Below are positions 4,259 through 58,846 of a DNA stretch of 64,000 nt, in pieces (the first letter of the stretch is position 1; each line of letters starts with the position of its first letter). A program made the position numbers and the translations under genes. This DNA comes from an uncultured delta proteobacterium (GTDB lineage: Bacteria; Desulfobacterota; Binatia; Binatales; Binataceae). Under the pieces are notes generated by a model that was given only the letters and a program-made list of their open reading frames with translations, ran no database searches and was not told the DNA's origin. The stretch is from contig CAVQEQ010000004.1 in NCBI GenBank assembly GCA_963711565.1, positions 416,001 through 480,000 on the forward strand, read 5' to 3'.

Positions 4259-4372
4259 GTGGGTTTGAACCTTCTAGATAAACATACCGCGATTGTGGGA
4301 ATCAACCGAGGAGCGGGGGAAGGGTAGATCGCTTGATTTAATTTGAAACCCACGGTGGGTTTCAAACTTCCT

Positions 4373-4399
4373 TCGGCAGGGGTGACCCCTGCACCCAGT
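4373..4399 (-). repeat. REP-like repeat, family B (GGGTGCAGGGGTCACCCCTGC)
   Basis: The same motif occurs at about 11026, 16627, 40405 and 40577. Confidence 0.8.
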
Positions 4400-4405
4400 G
4401 AATAG

Positions 4406-10979: not shown

Positions 10980-11050
10980 CCTGAGAGCAAAGTAGCGCGC
11001 CGCGCGCGCAACTTTGCGCTTCTCACTGGGTGCAGGGGTCACCCCCCGCG
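10980..11050 (+). repeat. Family B repeat with upstream CCTGAGAGC-hairpin
   Basis: CCTGAGAGC-hairpin followed by GGGTGCAGGGGTCACCCC; the same architecture occurs at 16571-16651. Confidence 0.7.
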
Positions 11051-11794
11051 ACGGTGTCGATGCCGCCCGCCGCGCAGGCGATTATTCTTTTCCTGGAGTT
11101 GGTCCGCCATCTTTTGGAACTGCGGATCTCTCTTCTTGCGCATCAACTCCGCCGCCGTGACGCCGTCCTTGTTCGCGATATCGCCGCGAGCGCCGCGCTC
11201 AATCATCATCGCGAAATATGTTTTGTCGCTCGACTTCTTCAGCATGTAGTGGAGCGCCGTCATGCCCGTCGGGTCCCGGTAGTTGACGTCGGCGCCGAGT
11301 TTCAGAAGTTCTTCGGCCGCCTTGAAATGACTCCACTTGATCGCGCTGATGAACGGCGACTCCTGGACGTCCGAGGGATCGTTGACGTTTGCTCCGTGGC
11401 GGACGAGCAGCCTGATGGCTTCGATGTTTTCGACGAACGTGGCTGCCCACAGGCAGTAGTTCGGATTCGACCCGCGCTCGAGCAGAAATTCCGCGAGCAT
11501 CAGATTTTCTCCGCGAGCAATCGCAAACCAGAGCGGCGTAGCCTTCCAGGCACCCTCGGTGAATGCTTCCATATTGAGGTCGAGGCCGCGCCGCAGCAGA
11601 ACCTCGGCGGTCTTGACGCTGTCTTCGGGCCTGAGCTTCGCGCGCTTCGGGTTCACGCCGCAGCAGAGATGGAGCCAGTTCCGTCCTCGCTCATCGCGAA
11701 CCGAAAGCAGGTCCGGCCTCTCGGCCAGCGCATCATCAACTTCGTTCGATCGAAACTCCTTGACCAGCTCGCTGAGCCTTGTCTTCGAAATCAT
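11039..11794 (-). CDS. Ankyrin repeat protein
   Basis: Repeats such as ATPLWFAIARGENLMLAEFLLERG, LLVRHGANVN and GMTALH. The ATG at 11794 overlaps the upstream stop. Confidence 0.85.
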   Translation of the reverse strand: MISKTRLSELVKEFRSNEVDDALAERPDLLSVRDERGRNWLHLCCGVNPKRAKLRPEDSVKTAEVLLRRGLDLNMEAFTEGAWKATPLWFAIARGENLMLAEFLLERGSNPNYCLWAATFVENIEAIRLLVRHGANVNDPSDVQESPFISAIKWSHFKAAEELLKLGADVNYRDPTGMTALHYMLKKSSDKTYFAMMIERGARGDIANKDGVTAAELMRKKRDPQFQKMADQLQEKNNRLRGGRHRHRRGG

Positions 11795-13975: not shown

Positions 13976-14054
13976 GGTTTCTCCGAATCGTTTTGAGTGC
14001 GAGTGTTGAGCCAAACTTCCGGCGCTCGTTCGCGCGTGTCAAGGGCGAAGGGCA

Positions 14055-14100
14055 GGAACCTGACCCCTAAACCCTTCCGTTGGTTGAAGAGGAACCGGAT
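14055..14100 (+). repeat. Degenerate family D repeat (DUF559-associated)
   Basis: GGAACCTGACCCCTAAACCCTTCC...GAAGAGGAACCGGAT resembles 26183-26232 and 51744-51786. Confidence 0.65.
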
Positions 14101-16570: not shown

Positions 16571-16680
16571 CCTGAGAGCGAAATGGCGTCCGCGCCATTT
16601 CGCTCTGAGCCTTCTTCTTCCTGACAGTGGGTGCAGGGGTCACCCCTGCCCAAGGAGGTGCGGAACCAACGGTGGGTTCC
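16571..16680 (+). repeat. Family B repeat with flanking hairpins
   Basis: 14-bp perfect stem at 16575-16606, core GGGTGCAGGGGTCACCCCTGCC, and hairpin GGAACCAACGGTGGGTTCC similar to AAACCCACGGTGGGTTT at 4347-4363. Confidence 0.7.
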
Positions 16681-16698
16681 GAATACAATTAGGTTTCT

Positions 16699-17619: not shown

Positions 17620-17883
17620 CTCACGCTGCCCTTCTTTGGAAGAACGGAACAGGGGCCACGGGTTAGGGGATTTCGGCGCTGCGTACGCAGAACCCTAACC
17701 CCTAGCCCCTTCCCCGGAAAGAACGGGGAAGGGGAATATCGGTAATAGGAATCGTGGTGTCCTATCCCCCTGGCCCCCTTTCCAGGCTGGAAAGGGGGAA
17801 TGAAGGGCAGGAACCTTCACCCACACCGGACCCACCCCACGGAGCCAACCCTTTCCAGGCTGGAAAGGGGGAATGAAGGGCAG
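17620..17883. repeat. Cluster of family D-related hairpin repeats
   Basis: GAACCCTAACCCCTAGCCCCTTCCCC...GGGGAAGGGGAA at about 17690-17735, plus two identical 35-bp copies at 17776-17810 and 17849-17883. Confidence 0.75.
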
Positions 17884-24124: not shown

Positions 24125-25734
24125 ATGGCCGAGAATCGCAAGCGTAAGTTCTGGGGATGGGGCTACGAGGACCAGGGCCGACTCCCGAACAGCAAAAGCA
24201 CATGGCCGAGCGGATGGCCAAGCGCTTCGGGCTTGGGCCGCTCGAAATCGCGCCGCCCCCCAAGGAAAGCGAGCTGAACCTGCGCGCGCCGCGCGTGAAG
24301 ACGCCGACGGCGCTCGAAGCGATTTGCTCGACATTGCCGCACGAGCGCGCGGGGCATACGTACGGCAAGGGTTCGCGCGATATTCATCGCGCATACCGGC
24401 GCGACTATCCGAATCCGATCGACGTGGTCGCGTTTCCGCGCGATGAGAAAGAGCTGGTTCGCGTGCTGGAATGGTGTGACGGCGCGCAGATCGCGGCGGT
24501 GCCGTATGGCGGCGGCTCGAGCGTCGTCGGTGGAGTCGAGCCGCCTGAAGGCGATCGCTATCGCGGGGCGGTGTCGATCGATCTGATGCATCTCGACAAA
24601 GTCGTCGAGGTCGATAAGGTCTCGCGCGCGGCGCGAATCCAGGCCGGCGTGTATGGTCCCGCGCTCGACGCGCAGTTGAAGCCGCTCGGCTTGACGATTC
24701 GCCATTTTCCGCAGTCGTTCGAGTTCTCGACGCTCGGCGGATGGATCGCGACGCGGTCGGGCGGGCATTTCGCGACGCTCTACACGCATATCGACGATTT
24801 CGTCGAGTCGCTGCGGGTCGTGACGCCGACCGGAATCGTCGAGTCGCGGCGCCTGCCCGGTTCGGGCGCCGGTCCGAGCCCGGATCGGATGTTCATCGGC
24901 TCCGAGGGAATTCTCGGGATCATCACAGAGGCGTGGATGCGCCTGCAGGATCGGCCGACGTTTCGCGCGGGTGCGTCGGTGCCGTTTCCGAGCATGTTCA
25001 AGGCGGCGGATGCGGTGCGGCAGATTTCGCAATCGGGAATCTATCCGGCGAACTGCCGCGTGCTCGACGAAGGCGAGGCGTTCAACTCCGGTGCGGGCAA
25101 TGGCGACGAGGCGGTGCTCGTGCTCGCGTTCGAGTCGGCGGACCATCCGCTGGAACCGTGGATGAAGCGGGCGCTCGAGTGCTGTGCGGACAACGGTGGC
25201 AAAATTCCGGCGGACGCGGCGAAGACTCGCACCGACGCCGAGGCGACGCATGAAGGATCGGCGGGCGCGTGGCGCAACGCGTTTCTCAACGCGCCCTACC
25301 TGATGGACACGGTGGCAGCGATGGGAATGGTGAGCGACACGTTCGAGACGTCGATCACGTGGGAGCGATTCCCGGAATTTCATCGCAATATGATGGAATG
25401 CGCGGGCGACATCATTAAACGCGTGTGCGGCAAGGGCACCGTGACGTGCCGATTCACGCACGTTTATCCTGACGGACCAGCGCCGTACTACACGATTCTC
25501 GCGCCGGGCAAGCGCGGCTCCGAGCTAGAGCAGTGGGATGCGATAAAGGCGGCGGTGTCGGACAAGCTGATCGCGCTCGGCGGCACGATCACGCATCATC
25601 ATGCGGTCGGCAGGTACCATCGGCCGTGGTACGACCGCCAGCGTCCCGATGGATTCGCGCTGGCGCTAAAGGCGGCGAAGAAGGCGCTCGACCCGCGCTC
25701 GATTCTAAATCCGGGAGTGCTGATCGATCCGTGA
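24125..25734 (+). pseudogene. FAD-binding oxidoreductase (alkyl-DHAP synthase-like), frameshifted near 24178
   Basis: The N-terminus MAENRKRKFWGWGYEDQG is in one frame and the body (PYGGGSSVVGG, HFPQSFEFSTLGGW, ITHHHAVG) is in another. Confidence 0.8.
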
Positions 25735-25746
25735 AACTCAATTTCT

Positions 25747-26232
25747 GGTTCCCCTTCCCGCGCGGGAAGGGGTTAGGGGTTAGGTTCTTTGACCGGATCG
25801 CAGCGCTTGCCTGATGTACTCAATCACCGCCTCGCTATCGAGCATCGCGTCATTCGATATCCTGAGAACTCGAATGCCCATTCGTGAGATCGCTTGGTCG
25901 CGCGCTTCGTCGTATTTCCATTGCTCCTGATGCACGCCACCGTCCAGCTCGATAGCAAGCTTGCCGTCATCGCAATAGAAATCGACGACGTATCCTGCGA
26001 TCACTTGCTGACGCCGAAAATGGAACCCGTCAATCGCGTTGCGCCGAAGGACCTTCCAGAGAATGCGCTCGGGCGCGGTCATGTCGCGGCGCAATCGTTT
26101 GGCGAAAGCGAGCTTCTCGGCCTGAACGCTTTGGACGCGGGTTATTTTGCTGCCGTTCGTCATAAGCGGGTTGCCGATGCCGAAGAACCTAACCCCTAAC
26201 CCCTAACCCCTTCCCGCGCGGGAAGGGGAACC
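25747..26232. mobile_element. Putative 486-bp element: DUF559 gene bounded by terminal inverted repeats
   Basis: 25747-25789 and 26183-26232 are exact reverse complements apart from one extra TTAGGGG heptamer in the right copy. Confidence 0.7.
25780..26163 (-). CDS. DUF559 (Vsr-like PD-(D/E)xK) endonuclease
   Basis: AKRLRRDMTAPERILW, FRRQQVIAGYVVDFYC, IELDGGVH and DEARD...VLRISN. Confidence 0.9.
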   Translation of the reverse strand: MTNGSKITRVQSVQAEKLAFAKRLRRDMTAPERILWKVLRRNAIDGFHFRRQQVIAGYVVDFYCDDGKLAIELDGGVHQEQWKYDEARDQAISRMGIRVLRISNDAMLDSEAVIEYIRQALRSGQRT

Positions 26233-26240
26233 GAATCCCC

Positions 26241-26558
26241 CTAATCGTCAATCTTCAGCTGTTTTTTCGCCGCGGCGGTCATCATGTGCGGGGTCCAGGG
26301 CGGGTCCCACACGATCTCGACGCGTGCGTCGTCGCATCCCGGGATGCCGAGCAGCTTGTCTTGGATGTCCTGCGTGATCATCATGCCCATCTGGCAGCCG
26401 GGGGCGGTCAGCGTCATCGTGACGTTGACGACGCGGTTCTCGATCTGCACGCCGTAGATGAGTCCGAGATCCACGAGGTTGACCGGAATCTCGGGGTCGT
26501 AGCACTCGCGTAGCACTTCGTAAACGTCGGCTTCGGTCGGTGCGGGCGAATTCTCCAT
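26241..26558 (-). CDS. DUF59/SufT-like metal-sulfur cluster assembly factor
   Basis: DPEIPVNLVDLGLIY, MTLTAPGC and VWDPPW. Confidence 0.9.
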   Translation of the reverse strand: MENSPAPTEADVYEVLRECYDPEIPVNLVDLGLIYGVQIENRVVNVTMTLTAPGCQMGMMITQDIQDKLLGIPGCDDARVEIVWDPPWTPHMMTAAAKKQLKIDD

Positions 26559-26607
26559 AGTGCAGAGTCTAGTATATAAGAGGGTGGGCATGCATCCGAG
26601 GTGAGAT

Positions 26608-26946
26608 ATGGCTGACAAGGAAGAGCTGTACGACGAGGCGATTGACGCATACGCCGACGACAAGTTCGATGAGGCGATCGAGTTGTACAAGAAAGCGCTC
26701 GAAGCCGATCCGAAGTACGCGGACGCGGTTCACGGAATGATCATGTGCTACCAGGCCAAGGGAGATCTGGACACCGCGATTGAGCTGACCAGGAAATATA
26801 TCGCGCAAGAGCCGGAAGATATTCTGGCGCATACCAATCTCAGCATGTTCTATCAGAAGAAGGGAATGGTGCCGGAAGCGGAAGCCGCCGGTGCAGAGGC
26901 GCGGCGGCTCGACTGGAAGCGGCAACTCAAGGAAGGCAAGAAGTAG
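26608..26946 (+). CDS. Tetratricopeptide repeat protein
   Basis: AIELYKKALEADP and further TPR-like helices. Confidence 0.85.
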   Translation: MADKEELYDEAIDAYADDKFDEAIELYKKALEADPKYADAVHGMIMCYQAKGDLDTAIELTRKYIAQEPEDILAHTNLSMFYQKKGMVPEAEAAGAEARRLDWKRQLKEGKK

Positions 26947-30695: not shown

Positions 30696-31756
30696 GCTAT
30701 CGCTCGATCCGCCGCGCGCTGGCTCTCGCATCTCTTGGCGCAATTTCCGCCGCCGCAATCGCGACCGTGCAGGGATGCGCGACGCGACAGGCCTCGACGC
30801 GCGGGGCTCCAGTCGCGCAAGCTGCTCCGAGCGCAAAGCCAACTCCCACCGGAGCCCCGCTCGGGACGCATGCGCCGTACGCAATCACGGCGGGCCTCGA
30901 TGGCAACCTGTGGTTCACCGAATACCAGGGCGACGGGATCGGACGGATGACTCCCTACGGCGCCACCAAGCGCTTTCCCATCGATCCCGACGGATTTGCC
31001 GAACGAATCACCGCAGGCCCCGACGGCGCGGTCTGGTTCACCGACACGGTCGGCAATCGCATCGGCCGCGTCGCCCCCGATGGCAAAATCGCGTACGTCA
31101 ACCTGCCGCATTCGGACAGTGGTCCGGCGGGAATCGCGTCGGGGCCTGACGGCAATATCTGGTTTACCGAGCATTCGGGCAATCGCATCGGGCGGCTCAG
31201 CACGACCGGCACGCTGACCGAAATCGAACTGCCCAAGGGCGCAGGTCCCGCCGAAATCGTCACCGGCAGCGACGGCAACCTGTGGTTTGCCGAGGACAAG
31301 GCGAATCGCATCTCGCGCGTCACCATCTCGGGCAACGTCAAGGAATTCGCAATCCTGACGCCGGACACGCGCCCCGCGATGATGGTGCTCGGGGCGGATG
31401 GCAACGTGTGGTTCACGCAGCCGCAGGCCAACAAAATTGGCCGGGTCACGCCCGGTGGTTACATCACGGAGTACGCGCTGCCTGCGGCCGGCGTACCGCT
31501 TGGAATCGCGGCGGGCGCCGACAAAAATCTCTGGATCACCGTGATTCGCGCGCAGCTGATCTATCGCATGACCCCGAAGGGCGATTTCGCGTCGTTCCCG
31601 ATGCCCGCGAAGTCGATGGCGACGTTCATCACGGCGGGCCCCGACGGCTCGCTGTGGTTCACCGAGCCCAACGGCAAGGTGGGCCGCATCACGACCTCGG
31701 GGATCGTGACGGAATTCGTCTTCTCGAATCCGTACAGCGAGCACGTTTACAGGTAA
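30692..31756 (+). CDS. Vgb-like beta-propeller lipoprotein
   Basis: About seven GPDGNLWFTE repeats; signal peptide with RR and lipobox VQGC. Confidence 0.82.
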   Translation: MSYRSIRRALALASLGAISAAAIATVQGCATRQASTRGAPVAQAAPSAKPTPTGAPLGTHAPYAITAGLDGNLWFTEYQGDGIGRMTPYGATKRFPIDPDGFAERITAGPDGAVWFTDTVGNRIGRVAPDGKIAYVNLPHSDSGPAGIASGPDGNIWFTEHSGNRIGRLSTTGTLTEIELPKGAGPAEIVTGSDGNLWFAEDKANRISRVTISGNVKEFAILTPDTRPAMMVLGADGNVWFTQPQANKIGRVTPGGYITEYALPAAGVPLGIAAGADKNLWITVIRAQLIYRMTPKGDFASFPMPAKSMATFITAGPDGSLWFTEPNGKVGRITTSGIVTEFVFSNPYSEHVYR

Positions 31757-40404: not shown

Positions 40405-40626
40405 GCGGGGCTGCTCGCCCCGCACCCTCGGCAGGGGTGACCCCTGCACTCAGTATTCGGAAAACTGGGCATGAGGACGCGAAGCGGGCTCGTGCTCAGC
40501 AGCGCAAATAACCTCGACCGTTCTCGTCGAAGAAGTTCTAACAGGCCGTAAGGCCGCATCTTCTCTTCATCTTAACACTGGGTGCAGGGGTCACCCCTGC
40601 CGCGGGTGCGGGGCGCGCAGCCCCGC
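40405..40626. repeat. Family B REPIN/MITE-like element of 222 bp
   Basis: 50-bp terminal inverted repeats at 40405-40454 and 40577-40626 (47/50 match), each made of two hairpins. Confidence 0.8.
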
Positions 40627-51734: not shown

Positions 51735-51743
51735 CCGGATTAG

Positions 51744-51786
51744 GAACCTAACCCCTAACCCCTTCCCTCGAGGGAAGGGGAACCGG
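51744..51786 (+). repeat. Solo family D repeat between convergent nuoN and purU
   Basis: GAACCTAACCCCTAACCCCTTCCC-tcga-GGGAAGGGGAACC is identical to the DUF559 terminal repeat except for the 4-nt loop. Confidence 0.85.
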
Positions 51787-51795
51787 ATTGTAAAA

Positions 51796-58526: not shown

Positions 58527-58563
58527 GAGAGACCGTTCTTCAATTGTGCCGTCTTAAGATTTA

Positions 58564-58818
58564 ACCTCTCCTTGTCCGAGGAGAGGTCGGCGAAAGCCGC
58601 GCAAAGCGCGGTGTCGCCGGGTGAGGTGCAACGCCTGACACCTCACCTACCTCAACTCGTTTAATTGAGATTGCCGGACACCGAGTCCGCGGCCAGGCAT
58701 CAGCACCACTTTCTAACACTCTGCAAAAGGCAACCGGGTGTCGCGGCGACGGCGAGCGTTGCACCTCACCCGTCGCTCACCTTTGGCTCGCGCGACCTCT
58801 CCTCGGACAAGGAGAGGT
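58564..58818. repeat. Family C MITE/REPIN-like element of 255 bp
   Basis: Perfect 26-bp terminal inverted repeat (ACCTCTCCTTGTCCGAGGAGAGGTCG) and perfect 17-bp inner inverted repeat (58618-58634 / 58756-58772). Confidence 0.82.
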
Positions 58819-58846
58819 GGGATCCGCAGACATCATTTCGAAGCGA

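Follow-up and report, generated by a model that had tools for sequence, protein, structure and literature searches.

A 486 bp unit at positions 25747–26232 of the window (the whole 64,000 nt stretch of DNA analysed here) consists of a 127-aa DUF559 gene framed by inverted repeats. The data suggest that this unit is an insertion-polymorphic cassette of a DUF559 gene and BoxC/TM-type repeats, in which the protein would recognise and nick the folded repeat and host repair would copy it. We consider this reading, taken as a whole, to be reasonably probable. The repeat class has already been published, so the new part is its pairing with a nuclease.

The 486 bp unit, its repeat and its protein

The unit lies between two convergent genes, for an FAD oxidase and a PF01883 protein, whose stops are at 25734 and 26241, respectively. 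The inverted arms (25747–25784 and 26195–26232) are 38 nt each and 100% complementary. When the inner tail is counted, the ends measure 43 nt on the left and 50 nt on the right, and the sole difference between them is one extra heptamer in the right end. The initial annotation had described both this bracketing and the position of the DUF559 stop codon inside the left repeat, and both are borne out. Inverted flanks of equal score were found in 1 of 300 random 315 nt spans. The features are as follows.

25747..25789, + strand: left end; 9 bp pyrimidine/purine hairpin, TTA loop and mirror third strand; contains the DUF559 stop codon
Left end, + strand: predicted purine-motif intrastrand triplex; 8 of 9 triads, third strand towards the gene
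25780..26163, - strand: DUF559 (PF04480) gene; 127 aa, predicted EDxHD/Vsr-type nuclease fold
26183..26232, - strand: right end; inverted copy of the left end plus one heptamer; predicted triplex on the - strand
51742..51788, - strand: solo copy of the same subtype; loop differs
14054..14100, - strand: decayed solo copy of the same subtype
17689..17798, - strand: double-unit solo repeat of another subtype; matches the flanks of paralogs L006–L008
58551..58831, no strand assigned: gene-less inverted pair of hairpin-loop triplex repeats; resembles the ends of the L004/L062 paralog type

Three gene-less copies had been proposed within the window. The one given as 51744–51786 does differ only in its loop and the one at 14054–14100 is a decayed copy, but the third (17689–17798) belongs to a different, double-unit subtype. 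The pair at 58551–58831 had been overlooked; judged by its sequence, it resembles a non-autonomous unit. A promoter and terminator scan of 25600–26700 found nothing. In the next intergenic spacer, at 26587, there is a 29 nt GC-rich indel polymorphism (contig sets X1 and X3).

On the G-rich strand of the repeat, a pyrimidine arm, a loop, a purine arm and TTA are followed by the purine arm in mirror image, in which A is faced by T or A. Under the triplex rule (G opposite G, A or T opposite A, at most one mismatch), 8 of 9 triads are matched at both ends and in the copy at 51780. The repeat is thus predicted to be a BoxC/PIT/TM variant; for that class, a class II purine-motif intrastrand triplex has been described (PMC4666352). 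The ends had been taken for plain hairpins with telomere-like tails. We rejected the reading of the tail as a telomere-like tandem repeat because in other subtypes the tail is non-telomeric and varies in step with the stem; it is better read as the putative mirror strand of the triplex. The exact TM_ECO consensus is not matched by the window repeat, whose stem sequence is different. This exact pattern was found at 3 of 79 loci of the genus set and at 16 of 80 GTDB loci (the best 80 of at least 595 matches), as well as at E. coli ycjD.

Folding prediction for the window repeat returns the 9 bp hairpin only. The mirror rule was examined in 165 hairpins chosen by Watson–Crick pairing alone, a choice that is non-circular for this rule. 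In these, the partner of G is G at 888 of 1152 positions, and that of A is A or T at 257 of 333. Among 66 distinct stem and third-strand pairs, the score with the strand's own partner was 5.09 compared with 4.54 when permuted, and none of 5000 permutations was as high. In some subtypes the second loop holds a small hairpin. The right end has four G tracts and one triad is mismatched, and this variant could form a quadruplex instead. The E. coli TM forms a stable triplex in vitro by CD and NMR, and DMS footprinting showed none in vivo (Holder 2015, PMC4666352).

The ORF at 25780–26163 matches PF04480 (E 2e-33) and no other Pfam family. A structure model of the protein (pLDDT 88) gave as fold matches NGO0050/3HRL (Z 14.7, rmsd 1.1, 93 aligned), I-Bth0305I (Z 11.7) and Vsr (Z 9.4). 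According to this model the fold is of EDxHD/Vsr type, neither HUH nor DDE, in agreement with the Vsr-like assignment made earlier, and the closer structural match would be the EDxHD homing-endonuclease domain rather than Vsr. Residues E32, D61, E72, D74, H78 and D85 are invariant in 21 aligned homologues. The basic residues R25, R40, R50, R51, R88 and R101 are likewise invariant, and this alignment contains no invariant Tyr or Ser. E32, D61, H78 and D85 align with the EDxHD positions, and the motif ExDGxxH is present in 171 of 173 collected proteins. The protein carries neither an HUH (Y1) domain with its catalytic tyrosine nor a DDE transposase or GIY-YIG domain. It is a single domain, free-standing between two stop codons, with no N-terminal DNA-binding domain and no intron or intein home.

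The gene is under purifying selection, with a median dN/dS of 0.10 in 116 pairs from the window's clade at dS near saturation; in-frame stops occur in 6 of 173 collected DUF559 genes. Elsewhere, a DUF559 domain forms an in-frame part of larger coding sequences (L159, L160, L167, L199), namely a class I tRNA synthetase, PriA, a Type I specificity subunit and a long cyanobacterial ORF, and there the inverted flanks are translated through as protein.

Pairing of DUF559 genes with repeats

Counting copies of the repeat in the genome and its relatives had been suggested as a check. In the source genome, the 22 nt tail and stem (at most one mismatch) gave 64 matches and the reversed control gave none. 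The full hairpin is present in 67 copies; about 65 are solo, and with related subtypes the number is about 100. The statement that copies are always between genes holds broadly: by a crude measure, 13 of the 67 lie wholly within any-frame ORFs of at least 200 codons, although such ORFs take up 82% of the genome. Across 47 genomes of the genus the number of copies ranges from 0 to 199. All 18 genomes with the cognate DUF559 clade (at least 66% identity) have 22–199 copies of the window repeat. The 29 genomes without an intact cognate divide into 19 with 0–8 copies and 10 with 17–116; several of these 10 are incomplete and one, G003, has a broken gene copy.

The source genome has eight small DUF559 genes, two of them broken. 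All eight are bracketed by inverted repeats and each protein subtype has its own repeat sequence. DUF559 genes are present in 42 of the 47 genomes at 1–19 copies (0–19 over all 47). Inverted flanks were found at 65 of 78 collected loci (77 from the genus and one from E. coli), compared with the 1 in 300 random spans given above; the genus loci are a non-random sample of 29 top-scoring and 40 hand-picked from 198 matches.

A second non-random sample, the best 80 of at least 595 GTDB matches, spans Pseudomonadota, Binatia, Desulfobacterota, Nitrospira, Myxococcota, Chloroflexota and others. Among the 74 of these best 80 homologues with full flanks, an inward triplex marks at least one end in 55 and both ends in 37; when hairpin loops are allowed these numbers become 62 and 42. 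The controls were low (shuffles, 0; distal windows, 4/66; control ORFs, 2/250). Outward-facing triplexes were seen in 26 of the 74. Loci with flanks shorter than 200 nt were left out of the counts. The signal is weaker in plasmid and phage homologues, where an inward triplex was found in 4 of 14 (strict) or 6 of 14 (relaxed), and none was found in the N. gonorrhoeae or Picosynechococcus homologues. A DUF559 search of a phage collection gave two matches. DUF559 genes of Deinococcus plasmids (L194, L201) and Gastranaerophilales (L125, L160) have strong inverted flanks in which the finder called no inward triplex, possibly because these loci have other end structures.

Co-variation of DUF559 clades with repeat families, which the initial annotation had proposed as a test, is seen in the eight paralogs. 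Both ends share a stem class in 83 of 92 elements (permuted mean 32). In the window's clade the exact loop is identical at both ends in 19 of 22 (permuted mean 4.7), non-palindromic loops included, and loops change jointly at both ends in protein subclades. This suggests that the two ends evolve in concert. On the protein tree, from which L008, L011, L187 and unlabelled loci were left out, stem class changes 25 times compared with 57 when shuffled, mostly owing to kin within the genus. In distant taxa the tree predicts stem class weakly, nearest neighbours agreeing in 42 of 72 cases compared with 42% expected.

The association extends to the Enterobacteriaceae. Among 150 genomes, with the seed genome G063 left out, at least four TM_ECO copies were found in 11 of 13 with DUF559 compared with 4 of 137 without it; for genomes of at least 3 Mb the figures are 11 of 12 and 4 of 73. 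All nine genomes with at least 14 TM copies have DUF559, and four without it have 6–11 copies. TM counts in E. coli are 23 in K-12 and 29 in 55989, in which ycjD is present, and 1 in IHE3034 and 11 in Sakai, both without the gene; the counts for K-12, 55989 and IHE3034 agree with published values. P values overstate the association because kin genomes are not independent. Taken together, the data make a specific partnership between gene and repeat very likely.

In this family the gene is single-copy, with a triplex at the 3′ end in 12 of 13 cases and at the 5′ end in none, as in E. coli ycjD. At the start of K-12 ycjD (L109 2262–2306) there is a long AT-rich hairpin and no 5′ triplex. The spacer between fabI and sapF is occupied by either ycjD or the eef operon (PMC12817139). 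These genes look sedentary from their sequence context, being one-ended and in several cases sharing flanks. The description of the unit as a minimal selfish element therefore fits the genus better than the DUF559 family at large.

The neighbours of the GTDB loci (118 ORFs from 62 of the 80) are unrelated housekeeping genes, 34 of these ORFs being without a match, and no C5 methyltransferase, transposase or integrase family was found among them. Three or four loci sit in Type I/III restriction loci.

Site polymorphism and routes of spread

Among the 47 genomes, the full unit is present at the window site only in the source genome (G000) and in G003, where it is frameshifted. Empty orthologous sites had been named as something to look for, and the element is missing in 45 of 46 relatives. 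Of the outcomes named in advance as counting against the initial reading, neither a lack of flank enrichment in DUF559 homologues nor a conserved locus without empty sites was observed. Of 24 relatives inspected at this site, 8 have spacers of at most 19 nt, 4 have a solo repeat of another subtype and others have unrelated genes. The spacer between the convergent genes is an insertion hot spot. Its orthologues (window 25735–26240) may hold a two-ORF cassette, resembling a small toxin–antitoxin pair, or other lone genes (L012, L013, L014, L019, L030).

The repeat-to-repeat unit aligns with matching boundaries at about 30 further places in the genus, and 69 elements of relatives occupy 36 flank contexts. 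The syntenic site is present in G000 for 47 elements, with no called triplex there in 34. Relatives differ at the solo site 51744: the spacer is either empty or carries a repeat of one of at least three subtypes, oriented alike in most cases. At both of two E. coli sites tested (L279, L281 vs L293–L296), strain 55989 has a TM in the place of the REP/BIME array of K-12 and IHE3034, which suggests that repeat systems may overwrite each other. Five E. coli footprints comprise one clean 92 bp indel, two TM-for-REP/BIME exchanges, one decayed copy and one complex deletion; the indel is edged by a short direct repeat and fits duplication or deletion. On these alignments, the pattern appears to be one of replacement more than insertion.

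There was no signal of a target-site duplication in 67 copies (80 of 300 permutations were as high), and genus spacers are too diverged for this comparison. No excision joint or circle was found across the element in four DNA contig sets, in which contigs break at the repeats, so that absence is unproven. In contig set X3 the element interior is identical (0 of 444 positions differ) and the flanks differ (34 of 997 and 8 of 354). This is a weak hint only, as tracts of identity continue beyond the element and none of the contigs spans the repeats.

We suggest that the G-rich strand would fold as an antiparallel triplex when single-stranded, following the CD/NMR precedent of the E. coli TM (PMC4666352). 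DUF559 would then bind the folded G-rich strand of its own repeat and nick beside it, in the manner of SsnA and its hairpin repeat, and host repair would place a copy of the repeat, or of the entire cassette, at the cut or in new intergenic sites. Spread would occur by nick-and-copy repair, homing or gene-conversion-like, and not by cut-and-paste; we favour the former over the latter because there is no invariant Tyr or Ser and no target duplication, and repeats tend to replace spacer content. Such a mechanism would explain the matching of subtypes, the homogenisation of ends, the replacement footprints and the lack of duplications. It is likely that the enzyme acts on its cognate repeat. That it also drives the spread of the repeat is only slightly favoured, and nick-and-copy as the specific route is rather doubtful. 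A broader possibility, somewhat less likely than not, is that DUF559 proteins are structure-specific nucleases that read an intrastrand triplex and drive transposase-free mobile cassettes of less than 500 bp, which overwrite spacers (BIMEs included) and homogenise their ends, YcjD being a domesticated form.

The pairing could be read differently. The nuclease may be a domesticated partner with a RAYT- or Ssn-like host function that, by cutting its repeats, restricts or remodels incoming or single-stranded DNA; repeats would accumulate as targets and the gene would move mostly by horizontal transfer of its locus. The single, one-ended enterobacterial copies with shared flanks are consistent with this, as are the finding that 3378 of 5426 E. 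coli genomes have ycjD, in one copy each, the purifying selection on DUF559 and the modulation of transformation by SsnA (PMC11893778). However, the spread within a single genus, with 0–19 copies per genome and 36 contexts, argues against it, together with the broken copies (two of eight in the source genome, and that of G003) and the in-frame insertions inside core genes (L159, L160, L167). We consider it unlikely.

It is less probable still, and in our view improbable, that DUF559 is captured cargo and that repeats are spread by an HUH/RAYT enzyme or by replication slippage or recombination at triplexes. Repeats do persist without the gene, in genus genomes and in E. coli Sakai, TM loci are unstable (PMC4666352) and the source genome has two Y1 (RAYT/TIRYT-like) transposase genes, L297 (G000:C1:341305) and L298 (C3:1344719). 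Both Y1 genes, however, have their own inverted, non-triplex flanks, the 118 neighbouring ORFs include no transposase or integrase family and control genes are not so flanked (2/250); cargo would not match its repeat subtype for subtype across many lineages. Words similar to the Y1 flanks occur in relatives' spacers at the element's site. Finally, a Vsr-type repair role, in which DUF559 would nick the T:G mismatches left by deamination of 5mC and would have only a chance connection with the repeats, is suggested by the Vsr fold and by the Caulobacter DUF559 protein VsrA, for which T:G nicking has been proposed and which causes an SOS response in a methyltransferase mutant while unlinked to its methyltransferase (PMC12907096), but is very improbable given that no C5-methyltransferase family is found among the 118 neighbours, that eight paralogs with private repeats and patchy sites are ill-suited to housekeeping repair and that the EDxHD homing-endonuclease domain is the closer match in the model.

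Relation to known systems

BoxC/PIT/TM repeats have been known since the 1990s from more than 260 genomes and are linked to local instability (PMC4666352). They share with the element repeat the order arm, loop, arm, 3 nt loop (TTA commonest) and mirror third strand with one mismatch allowed; they too are intergenic, single or in inverted pairs, and vary in copy number between relatives (PMC4666352). The window repeat differs in its stem from TM_ECO and in framing a nuclease gene. Transposase and integrase remnants are reported as absent near TMs and no mobility gene as found (Holder 2015, PMC4666352); neither 'ycjD' nor 'nuclease' is mentioned in that paper. The literature searched, which comprised neither subscription journals nor the original BoxC/PIT papers, patents or supplements (Holder Table S2, on flanking genes, may list ycjD), yielded no link between DUF559 and BoxC/TM.

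Neither the repeat class nor the fold is new; the system works like RAYT/REP and Ssn/SRM and belongs to neither. Ssn/SRM (SsnA-NTS, GIY-YIG ssDNA nucleases; Chenal 2025, PMC11893778) likewise combines a single-domain nuclease of about 100 aa with an oriented, enzyme-specific hairpin repeat on both sides of the gene and many dispersed copies. In contrast, the present fold is predicted to be EDxHD/Vsr and not GIY-YIG, the repeat is of triplex type and not a CGTC-tagged hairpin, and cleavage has been shown for Ssn whereas that by DUF559 is predicted. DUF559 is not mentioned in PMC11893778. RAYT/REP systems (REPtrons, REPINs; PMC3733652) also have one gene amid its own repeats, gene-less copies, inverted pairs and a gene whose presence tracks repeat abundance. 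DUF559 differs in having no HUH motif, catalytic tyrosine or GTAG tag, and in forming multi-copy two-ended cassettes in the genus.

EDxHD homing endonucleases (I-Bth0305I, PMC3239194) and Vsr have the same catalytic domain and residue pattern. DUF559 lacks the N-terminal NUMOD/HTH DNA-binding region, intron and intein of the former and, unlike Vsr, no C5 cytosine methyltransferase adjoins the window's gene, although unlinked cases are published (PMC12907096). It differs from classical insertion sequences in that the 127-aa PF04480 protein is not a DDE transposase.

Other repeats are present in the window. At 783–838 and 1853–1908 there are hairpin repeats of Ssn-related (SRM-like) type. The GIY-YIG genes of the source genome lie elsewhere than the window element, and a similar inverted repeat flanks one small GIY-YIG gene, L300 (G000:C1:78255–78470), which makes it likely that an Ssn-like system is present alongside that of DUF559. 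Another dispersed palindromic family (4336–4400, 11012–11056, 16613–16689 and 40405–40626) includes one inverted pair around 116 nt, and no partner gene for it was identified. The gene at 30884–31677 has internal repeats of about 42 codons, which we take to be beta-propeller-like.

In summary, a candidate enzyme can now be named for BoxC/PIT/TM, repeats for which no mobility gene had been found so far (PMC4666352). A homologue crystal structure (3HRL) and the copy in E. coli K-12 (ycjD) make the question directly testable. If the proposal is true, DUF559 would join HUH and GIY-YIG as the third enzyme fold that pairs with dispersed repeats. It would possibly be a natural protein that reads triplex DNA, and the family would be a source of many small nucleases with matched, differing recognition sequences.
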